Below are positions 1 to 8,175 of a stretch of 64,000 nucleotides of DNA, piece by piece (position 1 is the first letter of the stretch; every line of letters starts with the position of its first letter). The stretch is from a phage: sequence record PX880099.1; one strand, written 5' to 3'. Position numbers and translations under genes: made by a program. The notes below the pieces were generated by a model. It was given only the letters and a program-made list of their open reading frames with translations, had not been told where the DNA came from and made no database searches.

Positions 1-792
1 TGGCTTTCAATGTCTAACATCACCTGTAATATCTTTGATTGTGTTGGTCAACCTGAATCTGGTCCAGGGACATTTTATGATGGATTCTTCCGTAGAGAAA
101 AATCTGTTCTTGAGATGGTTAACGTAAACTGTTACCCAGATGGCAAGACTATGGTTACTGGTCGCCCACAGTGGAGCCGTTGCCGTTACTCTGATATTCA
201 TCGTGTCAACTGTAATGTTGAAGCTAATATGTATACCAATATCGCAGGTGGTATTGGAGCTATTGTAGGGACAACTGGCAAAGTTTATTACTTAGAGCCT
301 AACCCTAGCCGAAACATTGATGGGATGCATTTCCCAACAGGGAAGGAGTTTGACAAAGGGGATATGATAGTCAAAGCGGATAATACGTTCTTCCTTGTAA
401 CAACAAGTGGGGCATACATTCCAGATATCCCAGCTTTCGGTATTCGAGCTACACAAGCAGGAGATACCTTCCTGACACAGAACTTGACTCCTAATGGGAC
501 AGCAACAAACGCTTCTTGGTTGTATCACTATCCTCTGTCAGCAGGAACACGTATCCGTATTCCTGGTGCTGGTGTAGGTGGAGCAGATTTGGACACAGTT
601 ATTACTCGTGCACCTTATCAAGATAATGATACGTGGACTAACCCAGTTAAAATAGACATTGCAGATCCAATTGTAACGCCTACGAGTGCTGGAGTTAGAA
701 TCAAAACCATACCTAACGATTCTAGTAATGTTTCTGTAGGTAATACTGCGGTTATTCGCCCAACGCCAGTGGTAGATGTGCCAACAACCTAA
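1..792 (+). CDS. tail-fibre or structural protein, C-terminal part (5' end probably outside window)
   Basis: Frame open to window start; no SD before ATG at 10; Thr/Asn/Gly-rich; lies in tail-fibre block; followed by G/C hairpin. Confidence 0.4.
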   Translation, partial: WLSMSNITCNIFDCVGQPESGPGTFYDGFFRREKSVLEMVNVNCYPDGKTMVTGRPQWSRCRYSDIHRVNCNVEANMYTNIAGGIGAIVGTTGKVYYLEPNPSRNIDGMHFPTGKEFDKGDMIVKADNTFFLVTTSGAYIPDIPAFGIRATQAGDTFLTQNLTPNGTATNASWLYHYPLSAGTRIRIPGAGVGGADLDTVITRAPYQDNDTWTNPVKIDIADPIVTPTSAGVRIKTIPNDSSNVSVGNTAVIRPTPVVDVPTT

Positions 793-800
793 TGGAAATA

Positions 801-828
801 GAGAGGGGGGAATCCCCCTCTTCTTCCA
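801..828 (+). terminator. stem-loop GAGGGGGG-aat-CCCCCTC with weak T tail
   Basis: Perfect inverted repeat directly after the stop at 792; T tail interrupted, so may be an attenuator. Confidence 0.4.
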
Positions 829-857
829 ATAGAATGGTCTAATAATAGGAGAGATAA

Positions 858-2882
858 ATGAATTTAACAAGACCTAATAGTGCGATAGCCGATCTAGTAG
901 AAGCTACTTATCGAAAACGTCGCAGTTTTGAGGCAGGTTTTACATTACGTAATTCCCGTGAAGTTTTGCTGTTAGCGGCAGAAGGGAATTATTACCAATG
1001 GAAAGGAACTTTTCCTAAAGTAGTTCCAGCAAACTCTACGCCAGCCACCACAGGTGGTATTTCTTCCCTTGCATGGCAAAGTGTTGGGACCGCTGATGAT
1101 ATAGCAATTATCAATGCCAAGTTTACGGCAATGCAGCAACAGATTGATGATCTGTCGGAAACAATACCTGAAGCTGGTAAATCGGCTTATCAGATCGCAC
1201 TTGATAATGGTTTTGTTGGAACAGAAGCACAATGGCTTGCTTCTTTGAAAGGGGATACTGGTGCTCAACTTAATATTAAAGGATCATTAGCAAGCACTAG
1301 TGAACTACCATCTACAGGTAACGTTGCAGGGGATGGTTATATCGTAGGTGATGTGATTTACGCTTGGGATGGTTCTGTTTGGAAACTTATTTCTTCTCTT
1401 GGGCCAGAAGGTAAATCAGCTTATGAGGTATGGTTGGCAGATGGTAATACAGGATCTGTTTATGATTTTCTTACCTCTATAAAAGGTGATAAAGGCGATG
1501 TTGGTCCTACAGGGCCACAGGGAGCACCTGGTGTTAACGCCAACGGTTTTGATTATCGTGGGGATTTGCCTTCTACAAGTAACTTACCACAACCTAACTC
1601 TGAAAACGTAAGCCAAGCTTATTCTATCAATGGTAATCTTTATGTCTCCAATGGGACAGCTTGGGTCAACATGGGTAATATTGTTGGTCCTCAAGGTCCA
1701 CAAGGTGAGGCAGGTAAAGACGGTCTAGATGGAACAGATGGAGATGAAGGGAAATCTGCATATCAAAGTTGGCTGGATGCTGGTAATGAAGGGACAGAAG
1801 TAGATTTTATTGCCTCGCTTAAAGGTCCAAAAGGAGACAAGGGAGAGCAAGGAGAACGAGGACCACAAGGCGAATTAGGTCCACAAGGACCAGTGGGTGC
1901 AACAGGATCAGGTTTAGAGATTATCGGGGTTCTGAACAGCGAAGCTGAACTTCCTCCGACTGGAGAAGTAGGTGATGCATATAAAATTAATAATGATTTG
2001 TATGTTTGGGTTCAAGATGCTACGGAATGGATGAATGTTGGCAGTCTTGGAGGAACATCAATTACAGCTAAAGGTCATGTTCCAAACAGTGAAGCTCTCC
2101 CTGTTTACAATAACTATGGCGATGCCTACTTAACTGAAGACACTAGTAATCTTTACATCTATACCTACGATCAAGACACCAATTCCGCATCTTTTGTTGA
2201 CATGGGAAGTATTAAAGGCGACAAAGGTGAAAAAGGGGATAAAGGAGATAAGGGTGATCCTGGAACAAACGGAACCAACGGTACTGATGGGACCAACGGT
2301 AAGGACGGCGCACAGTGGTTTGTAGCAACAACTAATCCAGTCGCAGGAGACGGTGTTATCAATGATTACGCCTTCAATACTACCACTGGAGCAGTGTTTA
2401 AGAAAACAGATTCTTCTACGTGGACACTTATAGGAACTCTTCCTAGTATACCAGAAGCTCCTCAAGACGGCTTGACGTATGGTCGTTCTGATGGAAACTG
2501 GATCGAAATATCAGGATCAGATCCTACGGAAGCTATAACGCCAACTAGAGTTACAGCAGGTTTCATGGAACTTGAAACAACTACTGCCAACTCTGGAGCA
2601 TCTTGGACTCCTTCTGGAACTTCCAATATGTATGTTGTTACAGTAACTGACGCTCTGACAGTTGGAGCATGGCCTGGTGTCACTGGCTCTACAAAACCTA
2701 AAGCGTTTTCAGCAATGATTTATTTGATTCAAGATACAACGGGACACACGGTTACACTAGATGCGTCTTATGGAGCACTAAATGATACAGAAATAGCAAC
2801 TACTGCTAACGCAGTAACAATTTTGCAATTAACGTATCCTGGTGTGGGTGATATCGTGGACATGGTTGTTGTAACACGATAA
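858..2882 (+). CDS. tail fibre protein with collagen-like Gly-X-Y repeats
   Basis: SD AGGAGA before ATG; several Gly-X-Y runs (e.g. GDKGDVGPTGPQGAPG); thrice-repeated module EGKSAY..WL..G..DF..SLKG. Confidence 0.85.
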   Translation: MNLTRPNSAIADLVEATYRKRRSFEAGFTLRNSREVLLLAAEGNYYQWKGTFPKVVPANSTPATTGGISSLAWQSVGTADDIAIINAKFTAMQQQIDDLSETIPEAGKSAYQIALDNGFVGTEAQWLASLKGDTGAQLNIKGSLASTSELPSTGNVAGDGYIVGDVIYAWDGSVWKLISSLGPEGKSAYEVWLADGNTGSVYDFLTSIKGDKGDVGPTGPQGAPGVNANGFDYRGDLPSTSNLPQPNSENVSQAYSINGNLYVSNGTAWVNMGNIVGPQGPQGEAGKDGLDGTDGDEGKSAYQSWLDAGNEGTEVDFIASLKGPKGDKGEQGERGPQGELGPQGPVGATGSGLEIIGVLNSEAELPPTGEVGDAYKINNDLYVWVQDATEWMNVGSLGGTSITAKGHVPNSEALPVYNNYGDAYLTEDTSNLYIYTYDQDTNSASFVDMGSIKGDKGEKGDKGDKGDPGTNGTNGTDGTNGKDGAQWFVATTNPVAGDGVINDYAFNTTTGAVFKKTDSSTWTLIGTLPSIPEAPQDGLTYGRSDGNWIEISGSDPTEAITPTRVTAGFMELETTTANSGASWTPSGTSNMYVVTVTDALTVGAWPGVTGSTKPKAFSAMIYLIQDTTGHTVTLDASYGALNDTEIATTANAVTILQLTYPGVGDIVDMVVVTR

Positions 2883-2884
2883 CA

Positions 2885-2910
2885 GAAGCCCCGAAAGGGG
2901 CTTTCTTTTT
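2885..2910 (+). terminator. rho-independent terminator
   Basis: AGCCCC-gaaa-GGGGCT hairpin followed by TTTCTTTTT. Confidence 0.65.
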
Positions 2911-2923
2911 ATGGAGGGTTTAA

Positions 2924-5599
2924 ATGTTTCCAATTCCAATATTTACTATTATGACCAGCACTGGTGTCGTTCCTCTGCCAGCAGGTATTGTTAAAAAAGT
3001 AATCACTTTAGATTACCCAGACAATGCTGGTAATTCTAACAGCAGTTTAGCAATTTTGCTTAATGATGGTAGATTGTTTACTCAAGGCGCAAACCTTTTT
3101 GGTGAGATTGCAGATGGAACTCGTAGTGCACGATTCAATAACTTCCACTTAGCTTCTACTGTAGTAGCGGATGTGTTTACCGCAGATCGTTGTTTTGTTA
3201 TTAAAACTAACAGTGGGGGATGGCAATATTCAGGATTGACAGCAGGATTGGTAGGATCTATAGCAGCAGGTGGTACGGACGCATGTGTAACTACTTGGAC
3301 CAGCTTTCCATCTGTAATAACAGGGACTATCTCTTTAGCCAATCTTAAAGAGGTTAAGGGAGGATATAACAACACTCTCTGGTTAATGAATAGTGGTGTT
3401 CTTTATGGATCAGGTCAAAACACAGTAGGTAGTTTAGGTGCAAGTACTACTAACGAAGTTTCTACTCCTCGTCAGATAACAAGTGCAGCAGTTGCTTTTG
3501 ATGCAGGTTACAACCAATGCTCTTATGTCAACAATGTGGGAACCTTGCGTGTTTGTGGAGCTAGTAAAGGTTTAGCAGGTAATAATAACACAACAACAGC
3601 TTTTGTCAATGCCAAGATATCCGCTACTGAAACAGTGTATGTCAAAGATTACATCAATACAGTTTCCCAGACAATAGTTGTAGGAGATACCTCCGGTGGC
3701 ACGGGTACAGTAAACTACTTATATGTTAGATCTAATACAGAAACAACCTACACTAAACTGGATACCTTTGCAGCAGGTTTCTCAACATGGAAGTTTCCAC
3801 CAAGCCGCCACTCTTTTTTCGTTGGGATCAATAATTCCTTGTGGGCTATTGGTAAGAACTACACTGCAAACTTAGGTTTGGGGTATGATTCTGCGAGCGG
3901 AGATCCACTCCAAGTGGGAAAACCAGTTAAACCTGAAGGAGTGGGTTCTTGGGATATAAACAAGCTCACAAGCGTTCATACGCTGAATATGGATGTTACT
4001 AACCAATTAGGTTATCAAGGAACCTTTTTCGTTTATAATGGAGATATGTATTATTCCGGTATTTGGAAAGATGGGAAAGCCTCGTATCTGTTCAATAGTG
4101 GTCTAAACTATAATAAATTCACACCAATAGCAAGCTCCGTGATTACGGGTGATATTCTGGCAACTGGCTTAACTACAGATTCTTTAGGAATTTGTATTGT
4201 AGGCGGAACTAAACAGTTGACACATTCTGTTAGCCCAGAAGGAGGTAAACTTTTCAATATTAAATACACTTCTTCTGCCCCTGCAAACATGACAATATCA
4301 TCTACTGGTTTAATGACTTTCCATGCAGAAGGTGGTTTTGATGCAGGTATGACAGCCTTAAACGCTGAAGGAACAACTTTATCAGATACCTCTGGAGGAT
4401 ATGCTTCAACATTGAGCGTTTACACTCCTAGCTTATCTGCAATGGATGTAGGAACAACACAAACAATGGTAGCAGAAATAACGCCAACAGGGGCAGCAAG
4501 CTTACCTGGTATGGTTGTTGAGTATTTCTCTAATGACCCTACGGTAGCAACAGTTGACCCCGTTACAGGCGTTATTACAGCAGTTGCTGATGGGGATTGT
4601 CGTATCGGTTGTAGAGCAACTTATCAAGGTGTGGTAACTGCCGAAGATAGTTCTTATCTCGCAGTGAATGCTGTGGTGATTGTGATGGACTATGATTTGA
4701 CGCAAGAAACTATTCCGGCGGATGTAAAGGTCAACAGGAGTAACCGTTATGCCAGGGCTTCTGGAGATATCCTTGTACCTACGGAGAGTTCTGCTCCCGT
4801 AGCACCTTTAGAATATGTTGGTACAACTCCACAAGGTAGACGTGTTGTAGCAGCCAACCGTACACATATCTTTATCAACAACAACTTGACAACAGCTTCC
4901 CCGTGGTTGAAGACGAACTTGACAGTCACGGCATCAACAATCAACTCTCCGGTTGGAACTACGGCTAACACTTACAAGTTAACACCTTCTACAACTTCAG
5001 GACAACATATTTTATCAGCAGTGAATACAGCTTCTGATATTACAGCAGGTAAGCACTGGGCGGCATCCGTATTCTTGAAGCCAGACGGGATCACTAAAGT
5101 GAAACTCAAATTGACTTCAGGAGATGAGATTAACGAAGGGACTTATGATCTTGTAGCTGGAACATTTACAGGTGCAGATGCAAACATAATCGATATGGGG
5201 AATGGTTGGTATCGTGTAATTCTACACAAAGTGACAGTTGCCAAACAAGCATCTATAACCTATGAGATTATAGCTTTGAATGCAAGTGGATCAGACACTT
5301 TCGCAGGAGATGGTACGGCAGGTCTTATTGCTTGGGTTCCACAGCTTGAGATGGGTGATATGACAAATCCAGTTTGGGCGGGGACACCATTTGTTTGTTC
5401 TTATGCACGAGACACTACCAGTGCTGTTACCTTCACTATTCCTAAGAATGGACATACTGGCGTGGACATTTACCACACTGATGGTACTGTGCAACGAGAG
5501 GTCTTCACTGGTACAGCTACAACTTGGATGTTGACGTTCACCGCCGCAAGTGCGGATTGGGGATCGAAGTTCATTACAGGTTTGAAATATTACGACTAA
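2924..5599 (+). CDS. large tail fibre or tail spike protein with Ig-like (Big_2-type) domain
   Basis: SD GGAGGG; 891 aa; Gly/Ser/Thr-rich repeats; motif SNDPTVATVDPVTGVITAVADG typical of bacterial Ig-like group 2 domains. Confidence 0.8.
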   Translation: MFPIPIFTIMTSTGVVPLPAGIVKKVITLDYPDNAGNSNSSLAILLNDGRLFTQGANLFGEIADGTRSARFNNFHLASTVVADVFTADRCFVIKTNSGGWQYSGLTAGLVGSIAAGGTDACVTTWTSFPSVITGTISLANLKEVKGGYNNTLWLMNSGVLYGSGQNTVGSLGASTTNEVSTPRQITSAAVAFDAGYNQCSYVNNVGTLRVCGASKGLAGNNNTTTAFVNAKISATETVYVKDYINTVSQTIVVGDTSGGTGTVNYLYVRSNTETTYTKLDTFAAGFSTWKFPPSRHSFFVGINNSLWAIGKNYTANLGLGYDSASGDPLQVGKPVKPEGVGSWDINKLTSVHTLNMDVTNQLGYQGTFFVYNGDMYYSGIWKDGKASYLFNSGLNYNKFTPIASSVITGDILATGLTTDSLGICIVGGTKQLTHSVSPEGGKLFNIKYTSSAPANMTISSTGLMTFHAEGGFDAGMTALNAEGTTLSDTSGGYASTLSVYTPSLSAMDVGTTQTMVAEITPTGAASLPGMVVEYFSNDPTVATVDPVTGVITAVADGDCRIGCRATYQGVVTAEDSSYLAVNAVVIVMDYDLTQETIPADVKVNRSNRYARASGDILVPTESSAPVAPLEYVGTTPQGRRVVAANRTHIFINNNLTTASPWLKTNLTVTASTINSPVGTTANTYKLTPSTTSGQHILSAVNTASDITAGKHWAASVFLKPDGITKVKLKLTSGDEINEGTYDLVAGTFTGADANIIDMGNGWYRVILHKVTVAKQASITYEIIALNASGSDTFAGDGTAGLIAWVPQLEMGDMTNPVWAGTPFVCSYARDTTSAVTFTIPKNGHTGVDIYHTDGTVQREVFTGTATTWMLTFTAASADWGSKFITGLKYYD

Positions 5600-5638
5600 T
5601 AAAAAAGGGAACCCGCAAAGGTTCCCTTTTCTTTTATA
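5598..5638. terminator. bidirectional rho-independent terminator between convergent genes
   Basis: AAGGGAACC-cgcaa-AGGTTCCCTT hairpin flanked by A-run upstream and T-run downstream; sits between + strand stop at 5599 and - strand stop at 5663. Confidence 0.7.
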
Positions 5639-5662
5639 AAAACTCTTTATAAATCAATAAGA

Positions 5663-6544
5663 TCAGAATGGAATATCATCATCGAAGTCCATTGGAGGTT
5701 CTTCTTGATTACTTGGTTCTGGTTGTGGTTCAGGTTTCTTCTCTTCTTTCTTCTCTTCTTTCTTAGGTTGTTCTGCGGAACCACGAATGGCAGCAGCAAC
5801 TTTATCAGACAGAGCCAGAACTTTACGAGCAGAGTCGATCAGATCTTCTACAGATACAGTCTTAATGGTATGGTCTTTACAAGCATTGAGGATAGCGTGA
5901 CCAACAGATGCCCCAAGATCATAATCATTAATATCAACACCACGAGATTCAGCAATTTCCGATTTCAGCGTGACAGTTGCAGATTGAACAACCCCAGCGA
6001 TATCGAAAGCATCGCCTTTAACACCATTACGAATCAGTTCCAGTGCACCATTTACTGCGTGACCAGTTTCCAGACCTACAGTATCACGTTTTTTATAGGA
6101 TTGCTTAGGAGCAGCATCGTTGGAACCCTTATTGCCAGAAGATTTGTTAGACTTCTGAACACCATCGGTAGACAATACTGTAATACGAGATTTTTTAGTA
6201 TTGTAGTAAGTTTTACCGCCTTTATTATCAACGCGATCAATATCAATACTTACTTCTACACCTTTTTCAATAGTGATCCAGTTATCACCTTCTTTGACTT
6301 GCAGGTTTTCATAACCTTCTTTCAGTTCAATGTCACCAAGAGAAATCCAAACACCTTTCTCATCTGGTTTAGCACCTTTCTCTTTCAGAACAAGAGAAGC
6401 TCGGTGAGTTGAAACAATCGTTTTTCCTTCCCAATGAAAAGTTTTAGGTTCAGCGAATTTATCCAGTTTAACGTAGTCTACGATACCAGTTGCATAAGTT
6501 ACGGTTTTGCCTTTACGATCAGTTTCAGTATTAATTACGGACAT
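5663..6544 (-). CDS. putative ssDNA-binding or replication protein with SSB-type C-terminal tip
   Basis: C-terminus EPPMDFDDDIPF matches the E. coli SSB C-terminal tip as I recall it; Lys/Glu/Pro-rich linker precedes it; N-terminal fold not recognised. Confidence 0.65.
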   Translation of the reverse strand: MSVINTETDRKGKTVTYATGIVDYVKLDKFAEPKTFHWEGKTIVSTHRASLVLKEKGAKPDEKGVWISLGDIELKEGYENLQVKEGDNWITIEKGVEVSIDIDRVDNKGGKTYYNTKKSRITVLSTDGVQKSNKSSGNKGSNDAAPKQSYKKRDTVGLETGHAVNGALELIRNGVKGDAFDIAGVVQSATVTLKSEIAESRGVDINDYDLGASVGHAILNACKDHTIKTVSVEDLIDSARKVLALSDKVAAAIRGSAEQPKKEEKKEEKKPEPQPEPSNQEEPPMDFDDDIPF

Positions 6545-6560
6545 TATTATCTCCTCTACA

Positions 6561-6953
6561 TTACATTAATTTTGCACAGAAAGAGCGGAGTCTTTCCATA
6601 TCATCTTGCTCTAACAGGTATTTACCTTTACCTATTCCAACTCCAATTTCACCATTAGGAAAATGAACTATTTGCACTGGGAAACCTCCGAGTTTAATTG
6701 TGGCAGCTTTGCCTTCTTCGTCTATAACGTTTCGGATTGTATCTTGCAGTGAAATGAATTCTTTGTTTGTAACAGTGGTTTCAATTATTTCAGATGTTTC
6801 AACACGAGCAGTTAGCTTCTTGTTTCCACCTTGAATAACCAAAATTTGAAAATAAAAAGAGTTGTCAAGACCTACAACATTTTTCTCAACTAGTGTCAAA
6901 CTGGTATAGTTTCCATAAACAGTTTCAACAGCTATCTTAGAACGTTCAGTCAT
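6561..6953 (-). CDS. hypothetical protein
   Basis: 130 aa ORF in co-oriented replication block; no family recognised. Confidence 0.5.
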   Translation of the reverse strand: MTERSKIAVETVYGNYTSLTLVEKNVVGLDNSFYFQILVIQGGNKKLTARVETSEIIETTVTNKEFISLQDTIRNVIDEEGKAATIKLGGFPVQIVHFPNGEIGVGIGKGKYLLEQDDMERLRSFCAKLM

Positions 6954-6998
6954 TGAATGCTATCCTATCATAAAATGTTTAATATTGTCAAGCTTTAA

Positions 6999-7595
6999 TT
7001 ACCAAGGAATATCATCTTCTTCTTCCGATTTGGTATCTACTTGAGGTGGACGTGGAACCTTAACCTCTTTAACAAAGCGAAGATATGGGAAACGCGTAGC
7101 GATTTTAATAACATGTTTGGCATCTTCTCTAACATCTTTGTGCAAGAAGCAGATCCCTGTTTCCAAAGTTGTTTCAAAATCTTTAGAGTAATAACAATCC
7201 TTTCCATCAAATGCAGCCTGGCAGATGGACAGATCAAACTCATTCAGAAAGGTTGTCATTACATTTGGGTCCATAATCATAAGGTTGCAAAGCTGACCAT
7301 CACGTTCAAATTCAAAAACGTGTTTAAGACCAGTAACACCCTCGTAGTTATCAGAAGCCTCTTTGTTTCCTAGTTTACGAATATTAGTTCCCATCAAAGC
7401 AGATGCAATCAAGTCTTGTATTTGCTCTTCTGATCGATGTGCAGGAAGAGACGTGTAAAAATCCAGATCACGTCCAGCAATATCAAGAATACGCCAATCA
7501 CGAACAGCACCGCCAGCCAAGACAGAATTAGGATCAGCGATCTTTAATACAGTAAGAATTTCTTTGGCAATATTGATTTGTTTTGATTTAGTCAT
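6999..7595 (-). CDS. putative Pol-beta-superfamily nucleotidyltransferase with SSB-tip-like acidic tail
   Basis: GGAVRD..DLDF motif resembles CCA-adding/poly(A) polymerase head domain; C-terminus EEEDDIPW resembles the SSB tip. Confidence 0.5.
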   Translation of the reverse strand: MTKSKQINIAKEILTVLKIADPNSVLAGGAVRDWRILDIAGRDLDFYTSLPAHRSEEQIQDLIASALMGTNIRKLGNKEASDNYEGVTGLKHVFEFERDGQLCNLMIMDPNVMTTFLNEFDLSICQAAFDGKDCYYSKDFETTLETGICFLHKDVREDAKHVIKIATRFPYLRFVKEVKVPRPPQVDTKSEEEDDIPW

Positions 7596-7806
7596 TGATA
7601 CGCTCCACAGTTACTTTAACAATATCGTCCATATTAATCTCATCTCCCAAGACTTCAATAACACCTTCCTCATAAAGTCGAGCACATTCTTCCCATACTT
7701 CTGCTTCCGTCATTCCACCTTCAATCTTATTTGCAAGACCTTTAATAACATCTTCATTTTGTTCATCAATAAGAATTGAAACATTAAAGCTCACTAGTTT
7801 ACGCAT
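7588..7806 (-). CDS. hypothetical small acidic protein
   Basis: 72 aa; SD GGAGAA before ATG; overlaps upstream gene by 8 nt. Confidence 0.5.
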   Translation of the reverse strand: MRKLVSFNVSILIDEQNEDVIKGLANKIEGGMTEAEVWEECARLYEEGVIEVLGDEINMDDIVKVTVERIND

Positions 7807-7816
7807 TGTTTTCTCC

Positions 7817-7984
7817 TTATACCTCTAAACGGAAAGTTTCTTTAGATACAAAATCGTATCCACCTTTTTCAAGCCAGCCATTGTAAACCTCATCGGCTTG
7901 AGACTCTATCATAAAATACCGAGTGGTAACTTCGTCTCCGACAATACGCACAATTTTATAGCAAATCATGATACCATTTCCCAT
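7817..7984 (-). CDS. hypothetical small protein (55 aa, below ORF-track cutoff)
   Basis: ATG overlaps stop of upstream gene (TAATG); fills an otherwise empty gap in a tightly packed operon. Confidence 0.35.
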   Translation of the reverse strand: MGNGIMICYKIVRIVGDEVTTRYFMIESQADEVYNGWLEKGGYDFVSKETFRLEV

Positions 7985-8175
7985 TAATCTTCCTCCAGAT
8001 CAATTTCATTATAACAATGTATGCAGAAACCATCATTGTGCATATGTTGTTCATAAGACATATCTTTACCACAAGACCAACAACGGATATCCCCATCGTC
8101 CCATTCACGTTCTTCTTCACCTTCAAATTCATCTGGTAGGTAAGGCATACCAAGACAATCTAAATCGTAATGCAT
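7984..8175 (-). CDS. small Cys-rich (zinc-ribbon-like) protein
   Basis: 63 aa with CWSCG and CIHC pairs; SD AGGAGG before ATG. Confidence 0.5.
   Translation of the reverse strand: MHYDLDCLGMPYLPDEFEGEEEREWDDGDIRCWSCGKDMSYEQHMHNDGFCIHCYNEIDLEED

Follow-up and report, generated by a model that had tools for sequence, protein, structure and literature searches.

A collagen-like fibre and a modular adhesin encoded behind a phAPEC8-type colanidase, probable parts of one branched lateral tail fibre

Phage phi92 (Justusliebigvirus) provides described counterparts of the two adjacent genes analyzed here, which encode a 674-amino-acid (aa) collagen-like fibre (P1; 858-2882) and an 891-aa adhesin (P2; 2924-5599) in a 64,000-nucleotide (nt) stretch of phage DNA, sequence record PX880099.1 (the window, to whose numbering all positions refer; features are on the plus strand unless stated otherwise). 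Both open reading frames (ORFs) lie exactly where the original prediction, made from the DNA letters alone, had placed them. phi92 gp151, a "potential tail fiber," is 60% identical to P1 over its full length and shares with it three GKSAY modules, collagen runs, a C-terminal tip, and the position after a colanidase, gp150. The neighboring gp152 resembles P2 in its M-Y-P-I-P start and in a pair of immunoglobulin (Ig)-like domains with 62% identity. Unlike the window, however, phi92 has no RCC1 propeller, and the downstream part is split off as gp153; PHB05 has a fused 939-aa version. A 2025 Arch Virol paper names the same two genes, in the proposed genus "Wecvirus" and in Phapecoctavirus, TfpM2 (P1; 681 aa in its isolates) and TfpM1 (P2; 890 or 891 aa) (PMC12695924). 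These TfpM names reflect size only; domains, repeats, cassette boundaries, and assembly are not described there.

Over nt 1-8000 the window has 98.5% identity with Escherichia phage vB_EcoM_Schickermooser and 98.0% with phAPEC8, which places it in the genus Phapecoctavirus (Stephanstirmvirinae); 67 phage records span at least 80% of this region. P1 corresponds to phAPEC8_00179, deposited as "putative phage tail fiber protein," and P2 to phAPEC8_00180, deposited as "hypothetical protein" or "tail protein." As in phAPEC8 (98% DNA identity), they are the final two genes of a plus-strand baseplate/fibre block, after a 1017-aa colanidase tailspike, and the genes past the terminator at 5603-5640 are on the minus strand. 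Both proteins match PHROG families end to end (P1, PHROG 15437 "tail fiber," 1337 bits; P2, PHROG 11922, 1634 bits), and both genes are present in GenBank at 98-99.9% identity, for example with 99.9% protein identity in UP17 (P1) and TSP7_1 (P2). The pair is already known at the gene level, as phi92 gp151 (2012), as TfpM1 and TfpM2 (2025), and through many GenBank annotations, and as a finding the two genes are ordinary: dozens of deposited coliphage genomes contain them, with annotations that name a tail fibre, a tail spike, or simply a tail protein. What is added here is a domain map, the exact boundary of an exchange cassette, a B module and a foldon-like motif in P1, and a split-fibre hypothesis. 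The map is at residue level and should be useful for the therapeutically popular relatives of phAPEC8 and phi92.

Our reading of the locus, to which we assign a probability of about 0.6, is that colanidase, P1, and P2 make up one branched lateral fibre, encoded where the tail-appendage module of this phAPEC8-like myovirus ends. One comparison behind it is with the long tail fibres of the Vequintavirinae (rV5, 581 aa; PVP-SE1 gp41; phiTE/CB7_36, PDB 9CUY chain g), which have an anchor like that of the colanidase and a tip like that of P1; a hairpin and a P2-type gene come after each of their genes. In those phages both ends are on one polypeptide, whereas in the window they are found on two proteins, with a collagen-like shaft. 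Only the C-terminal 260 aa of the colanidase (phAPEC8_00178 type) are encoded in the window (10-792), as the gene starts upstream; this fragment matches PHROG 6117 "colanic acid degradation" (E value of 5.9e-89), and the annotation is the same in Schickermooser and phAPEC8. The N-terminal part was analyzed with the full-length protein in L001 (12739-15792). Its aa 10-114 have 41-49% identity to the N termini of the rV5, PVP-SE1, CB7, and K54 fibres, and the N terminus also aligns with the long tail fibre of phiTE (9cuy_g residues 14-129; E value of 1.5e-18), in the portion that was modelled bound to the baseplate wedge (PMC11972413).

The opposite end of the Vequintavirinae fibre is found on P1. 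Its C-terminal tip domain (2529-2879; aa 558-674), a beta-sandwich in the AlphaFold2 (AF2) model, is common to rV5-type long tail fibres, with local identities over aa 570-674 of 51% to the C terminus of the 581-aa rV5 fibre, 58% to PVP-SE1 gp41, and 37% to CB7_36/phiTE, and with a match to the phiTE fibre 9cuy_g at an E value of 4.2e-8. The domain is present in 392 phage records, including jumbo-phage proteins named "long tail fiber proximal subunit." As the colanidase bears the anchor and P1 bears the tip, the two ends of one Vequintavirinae fibre are on two consecutive proteins, which implies a split or an interruption of the fibre gene in an ancestor. In rV5 (1878 aa), PVP-SE1 (gp40), CR9, CB7, and phi92, the fibre gene with the tip is likewise succeeded by a gene of the P2 type. 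From this we build a fuller hypothesis, possible but tentative in its entirety, in which an rV5/phiTE-type fibre was split in the Stephanstirmvirinae and colanidase, P1, and P2 now form one branched three-tier appendage, corresponding to "fibre II" of phi92. P1 would have been reattached through its Tail_spike_N domain and the M-x-P-I-P arm of P2 would sit in the P1 tip, while the C-terminal cassette of P2 would set strain specificity and a conserved leaky terminator the P2 copy number.

How P1 might be attached is suggested by its N terminus. A Tail_spike_N domain of the TSP1/Gp66 type (PF18668; 891-1088; aa 12-77), the presumed docking domain, scores 70.5 bits against a cutoff of 25 and is modelled with a predicted local distance difference test (pLDDT) score of 84-90. 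PDB sequence and Foldseek searches match it to CBA120 TSP1, TSP3, and TSP4, G7C gp63.1, and Gp48 of Shigella phage B2, with 4qnl, 6nw9, and 4oj5 among the Foldseek matches. The Ackermannviridae tailspikes TSP1 and TSP3 use their N-terminal TD1 domains to bind gp10-like XD3 domains of TSP2 and TSP4; TSP1, TSP3, and gp66 all dock on a partner tailspike (PMC11414711). P1 is like CBA120 TSP1 and TSP3 and G7C gp66 in beginning directly with a domain of the Tail_spike_N/TD type, and the colanidase is like TSP2, TSP4, and G7C gp63.1 in having further domains N-terminal to its own TD domains (TD/Tail_spike_N at about aa 226-361, with Tail_spike_N at 302-361, matching the TD domains of CBA120 and G7C). 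Unlike the CBA120 and G7C proteins, P1 has a collagen fibre as its distal part, with no beta-helix enzyme, and its complex is a putative one. A sequence search of the colanidase for a gp10-like XD or Pfam domain found none, only a weak adaptor-like stretch (7y22_e; E value of 1e-3). P1 would be a putative homotrimeric side fibre whose Tail_spike_N domain docks on another tail protein, the likeliest partner being the colanidase just upstream, the carrier of the rV5/phiTE-type baseplate anchor.

The same end of P1 bears on whether it is a baseplate fibre at all. It could instead be a fibritin-like neck whisker or a capsid spike, a trimer with coiled coil and foldon similar to the Pa223 spike, which we consider very unlikely. 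P1 does have a foldon-like motif and, after the N-domain, a short helical, coiled-coil-like neck (1095-1169; aa 80-104; AF2 helix at 81-102). phi92 gp151 is annotated "coiled-coil," and "potential capsid binding domain" is the label given to the N-domain in the phi92 record. Foldseek with the P1 monomer gave, beyond the N-domain matches, only a weak match to the Pa223 capsid spike (9ny6_C; E value of 4.6e-4); the template modelling (TM) score is just 0.14 normalized to the query and 0.28 to the target. Trimerisation domains of collagen XV/XVIII were also among the Foldseek results, but with E values of 2-3 they are not significant and were not used. Against a whisker or spike, Tail_spike_N joins tailspikes to tail adaptors in solved cases (PMC11414711), the P1 gene lies at the end of the baseplate/fibre block, and the tip belongs to the phiTE long tail fibre, the N terminus of which is seen on the baseplate wedge (PMC11972413).

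Several points weigh against the branched fibre itself, and some of them would suit a rather unlikely alternative in which P1 and P2 are independent appendages. P1 would then be a side fibre on the baseplate or another adaptor (for example, the 958-aa gp141-type protein), its tip binding a conserved receptor, and P2 a monomeric, Hoc-like decoration or adhesin placed elsewhere (tail, baseplate periphery, or capsid) via its arm or Ig domains. The tip occurs with no P2-type neighbor in Klebsiella phage K54_rec6 and in jumbo phages, and so does not need P2; moreover, the adjacency of P1 and P2 would be kept by descent anyway and is not independent evidence of contact. The arm and the Ig pair are the only part common to all Stephanstirmvirinae P2 homologues, and phi92 has the Ig pair only, gp152 being just 202 aa. 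Ig-like and gene transfer agent (GTA) head-spike domains are typical of surface decoration, and Rcc01080, a protein with such a head-spike domain, is located on capsid vertices (PMC10218006). In a 2026 cryo-electron microscopy (cryo-EM) study of phi92, AlphaFold3 models of gp150 or gp151 singly did not fit the fibre II density, which has no assigned protein (PMC13450770). The phi92 capsid model, however, has neither fibres nor extra proteins beyond the major capsid and cement proteins (PMC13450770), which speaks against independent appendages, as do the retention of a P2-family gene directly after the tip-bearing fibre gene, with a conserved hairpin/Shine-Dalgarno (SD) spacer, in six lineages and the BASEL annotation of a Justusliebigvirus homologue as a lateral tail fiber protein.

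Other points count against the branched fibre without favoring any one arrangement. phi92 gp150 has no detectable Tail_spike_N match to P1, and the order of docking is one that we infer. No mass spectrometry (MS) data on phAPEC8-type particles were found in the literature searched, and the "proteomics" paper on an O177 phage contains no virion MS. For phi92, virion proteomics was reportedly carried out by Schwarzer et al. in 2012. The Gly-X-Y runs of P1, with 6-11 triplets and few prolines, may form only marginally stable triple helices. As to the gene after the fibre in CB7, a hidden Markov model (HMM) of the P2 family did not match CB7_37, BF_0224, or BF_0223, and a Pfam search of CB7_37 returned nothing. 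CB7_37 starts MIPFA and has weak similarity to P2 at the N terminus (z score of 6.3), so its homology to P2 depends on that alignment, given that both the HMM and Pfam are negative. In favor of a place in the virion, CB7_36, the fibre, and CB7_37 are both marked in GenBank as "MS/MS confirmed" structural proteins.

The shaft of P1 is where the original prediction of a collagen-like tail fibre is borne out, together with the end-to-end PHROG 15437 match, the 60% identity to phi92 gp151, and the C terminus of the phiTE/CB7 type, a long tail fibre confirmed by cryo-EM and MS/MS. The several Gly-X-Y runs that had been predicted are four uninterrupted ones, of 6 triplets (1485-1538; aa 210-227), 8 triplets (1686-1757; aa 277-300), 10 triplets (1824-1913; aa 323-352), and 11 triplets (2217-2315; aa 454-486), the last varying in length among relatives. 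Pfam Collagen (PF01391) matches P1 in four stretches with 46.6 bits against a cutoff of 27.2, and in the AF2 monomer all four runs have pLDDT scores below 50, as expected for a single chain. A rescan of P1 against Pfam with E values up to 10 returned Tail_spike_N and Collagen only, with no Fibritin_C and no newer fibre family.

A module of about 30 aa containing GKSAY, here called A, is indeed present three times, at 1167-1256 (aa 104-133), 1401-1490 (aa 182-211), and 1740-1829 (aa 295-324). Pairwise local alignments give z scores of 12-17 (12-14 for copy 1 against the other copies), and none of 500 shuffles reached the observed score. The proposed layout, each module followed by a collagen run, is seen in part: copies 2 and 3 directly enter a collagen run, while copy 1 is followed by GDTGAQ only, i.e., two triplets. 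A second module, B, had been overlooked. It has about 48 aa with the consensus LP..GDaY..lYvW..W..G and is found in four clear copies, at 1266-1409 (aa 137-184), 1539-1691 (aa 228-278), and, back to back, 1914-2219 (aa 353-402 and 403-454), with z scores of 5-13. A weak fifth B-like module (2316-2447; aa 487-530) aligns with B copy 1 only (z score of 6.8). In the AF2 model the A modules are helix-turn-helix units and the B modules four-strand beta units (pLDDT of 76-89; about 83 for copy 1).

A B-module profile had no significant match among PDB sequences, the best being 8y6v_I, gp184, at an E value of 0.06, although its motif looks convincing. Residues 66-106 of this chain (ALTTTKDLPTDPEPGDTYHVNGVDWIYQEDGGWVTMQGIYG) are the sole B-module-like sequence in a solved chain, and gp184 could serve as a structural template for the B module, with the reservation that the match is not significant.

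Between the last shaft module and the tip lies a foldon-like motif, IPEAPQDGLTYGRSDGNWIEIS (2445-2510; aa 530-551). Local alignment with the T4 fibritin foldon has a z score of 16, phmmer matches the motif to the fibritin-foldon chimeras 1v1h, 8wtj, and 8wro (E values of 0.003-0.007), and several P1 homologues carry a precomputed match to Fibritin_C (PF07921). In T4 fibritin the foldon is C-terminal, whereas in P1 the motif is internal, with a tip of about 110 aa after it. The foldon serves as a trimerisation tag in engineered collagens. P1, a natural collagen-like fibre with a foldon-like motif, offers a parallel to these constructs.

EPclA and EPclB, from a prophage of enterohaemorrhagic Escherichia coli, show what such a shaft can look like: they are trimeric, and their Gly-X-Y runs are flanked or interrupted by trimerisation modules that appear as beads on a string in EM (PMC3368898). 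P1, known here from its sequence, is alike in this layout, and homologues in Shiga toxin (Stx) phages match its aa 275-351 with 47% identity. In contrast to P1, with four short collagen runs, the EPcl proteins have PfN and PfC ends and one or two long collagen domains (111-157 aa), and they lack Tail_spike_N, the A and B modules, and the foldon-like motif. The P1 shaft may be a string of beads composed of a short coiled coil, A modules, collagen helices of 6-11 triplets, and B modules, ending in a foldon-like hairpin and the tip of about 110 aa. The non-collagen modules and the foldon would probably nucleate trimerisation and set the register for collagen runs too short to fold alone.

The original prediction also had P1 elongated by internal duplication, which fits the duplicated modules and the variation in length by module. 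The duplication is not recent, however, as no DNA identity remains between copies: a search of 858-5599 for DNA-level repeats found short chance matches only, and a recent duplication of the P1 modules was rejected on this ground. That it is old also follows from phi92 gp151, which has the same three A modules at only 60% identity. The duplication is older than the split between Phapecoctavirus and Justusliebigvirus. The length of the shaft does vary by modules. Relatives 77-85% identical to P1 have 9, 10, 11, or 13 triplets in the last collagen run, and in distant homologues the A-like motifs number up to 17 and the collagen runs up to 13. A protein of phage vB_EcoM_EP57, 99% identical to P1, has a clean in-frame deletion of 162 aa (aa 319-480; window 1812-2297) that takes out the last two collagen runs together with the third and fourth B modules, which suggests that P1 can do without about a quarter of its shaft. 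Shaft length can change by triplets or by whole modules.

P2 turned out differently from the predicted Ig-domain fibre. It combines an RCC1-like propeller and two Ig-like domains with a lectin-like domain of the GTA head-spike-fibre kind, and there is no sign that it is a trimeric fibre. The AF2 model, made with 31 homologues, has a mean pLDDT of 78.9. At the N terminus is an arm with the pattern M-x-P-I-P..G..P...G (2924-2986; aa 1-21), in which M1, P3, P5, G14, P17, and G21 are invariant in the 31 homologues and the pLDDT of 40-57 predicts disorder; high conservation with low model confidence is typical of a docking peptide. The M-x-P-I-P start is common to the rV5, PVP-SE1 gp40, phi92 gp152, and PHB05 proteins, whatever domain follows. 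The arm would most likely attach to the P1 tip.

What had been seen as Gly/Ser-rich repeats are the blades of a seven-blade RCC1-like beta-propeller (2987-4123; aa ~22-400), identified by Pfam, AF2, and Foldseek. AF2 places it at about aa 8-400 with a pLDDT of ~90, and Pfam RCC1, at 24.0 bits, is above its cutoff of 21.7; WD40_RLD, with 42.5 bits, is under its cutoff of 150. Foldseek matches are UVR8, HERC2, and RCC1, with E values of 1e-15 to 1e-10 and TM scores (target) of 0.6-0.7 (best, 0.71). The propeller is followed by two Ig-like domains (4151-4669; aa 410-582), modelled as sandwiches, the second of which is the Big_2 domain that had been predicted (PF02368; aa 505-561; E value of 4.4e-10; 39.8 bits against a cutoff of 22.8). 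The rest of the model comprises a disordered linker (584-648), a beta-sandwich (650-812), and a small beta domain (835-890).

The beta-sandwich (4853-5365; aa 644-814) is assigned to NF048003 of NCBIfam, "phage head spike fiber domain," with 73.7 bits against a cutoff of 36 (pLDDT of 80-90), and aa 580-831 are homologous to Rcc01080 of RcGTA (PDB 6tb9; E value of 4.5e-14). Rcc01080 binds far better to capsule-bearing than to capsule-less cells and is anchored via N-terminal residues 2-10 (PMC10218006). It resembles P2 in the homologous domain and in having a short N-terminal arm. It differs in being a 325-aa protein of the capsid vertices, whereas P2 has 891 aa, carries the domain as its C-terminal module, and is encoded in a tail fibre region. 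Vertex location and capsule binding are known for RcGTA only. The domain is also found in siphophage "minor tail proteins" and in virion proteins of RcapMu and cyanophages. P2 may be a modular adhesin in which an arm and a propeller are joined, through two Ig spacers and a flexible linker, to an exchangeable, putatively glycan-binding C-terminal domain. In a branched fibre, the enzyme would clear colanic acid, and the distal lectin or leucine-rich repeat (LRR) module would give strain-specific, reversible binding.

That the C-terminal domain is exchangeable is seen in the comparison with relatives. Both proteins had been proposed as recombination hot spots. For P1 this does not hold, since it is at least 99% identical at the protein level in 40 phage records, and in P2 it applies only to the last ~307 aa, which form a sharply bounded cassette (4675-5627) that takes in aa 585-891 together with the stop codon and the larger part of the terminator. 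Compared with phage ESCO5, the DNA is 97.5% identical as far as nt 4674, shows no identity across 4675-5627, and is 97.7% identical again from 5628 on, a point within the terminator; at the cassette position ESCO5 has a BspA-type LRR. Each of the two alleles occurs in about half of the close relatives. The allele of the window is 98.4% identical in phiWec179, where the remainder of P2 has only ~85-88% identity, and 92% identical in some Justusliebigvirus phages, implying that the cassette moves between genera; phiWec190 carries the LRR-type cassette. More distant P2 homologues end directly past the Ig pair or have other C termini, and the Justusliebigvirus homologues have no propeller.

Phages fall into two groups by their TfpM1, which differs mostly at the C terminus; the phiWec179 group, with the allele of the window, appears to use flagella, and the phiWec188/190 group, with the LRR allele, needs YhaH (PMC12695924). 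As the two groups also differ in TfpL, the link between allele and receptor is a confounded correlation. The predicted role of P1 and P2 in host range is plausible on homology and on this one correlation. The cassette boundary, the EP57 shaft deletion, and the split-fibre relationship could be of help in engineering host range and in interpreting cryo-EM density of low resolution.

Each of the two genes has its own terminator, as predicted: a hairpin with a T-tract at 2885-2904 for P1 and at 5603-5630 for P2. A terminator scan found 8 hairpin/T-tract sites against 2.9 ± 1.7 expected, and the hairpins agree with terminators that the phAPEC8 and Schickermooser records list as ARNold predictions. 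A further terminator-like hairpin lies between the colanidase gene and P1 (800-830, hairpin at about 801-822; 9-bp G+C stem; -23 kcal/mol for the spacer), and P1 has the Shine-Dalgarno sequence AGGAG 8 nt upstream of its start. The P1-P2 spacer (2885-2917) contains the hairpin, the T-tract, and the P2 Shine-Dalgarno sequence GGAGG (2913-2917), while the terminator after P2 (5603-5640; 11-bp stem and T-tract) ends the late structural operon. The hairpin/U-tract/SD layout of the spacer is kept in six lineages from two subfamilies (the window, phi92, PHB05, rV5, PVP-SE1, and CB7); the hairpins are conserved in position and differ in stem sequence, with loops GAAA, TTCG, and TGAC. No promoter-like site was found in the P1-P2 spacer. 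With the hairpin preceding P2 and no such site, P2 is presumably translated from read-through transcripts, and attenuation at the hairpin would probably make its yield lower than that of P1.

The minus-strand ORFs overlapping P1 and P2 are at most 111 aa and unsupported, and neither a tRNA scan nor an Rfam scan of the window gave a hit. Near-identical genomes (~97-98% in DNA or protein) bear the names "Acinetobacter phage vB_AbaM_ABPW7" and, in several records, "Campylobacter phage," and "Pseudomonas phage PsgM04F" has a P1 homologue with 80% identity; for a coliphage genus, these host labels are doubtful or worth checking. Past the terminator, the minus strand encodes a 293-aa protein (5663-6544) whose acidic C-terminal tail ends in DDDIPF. 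It matches SSB-type PHROGs at this tail only and is annotated as SSB in some relatives. An adjoining 198-aa nucleotidyltransferase (6999-7595) has a similar tail, EEDDIPW.

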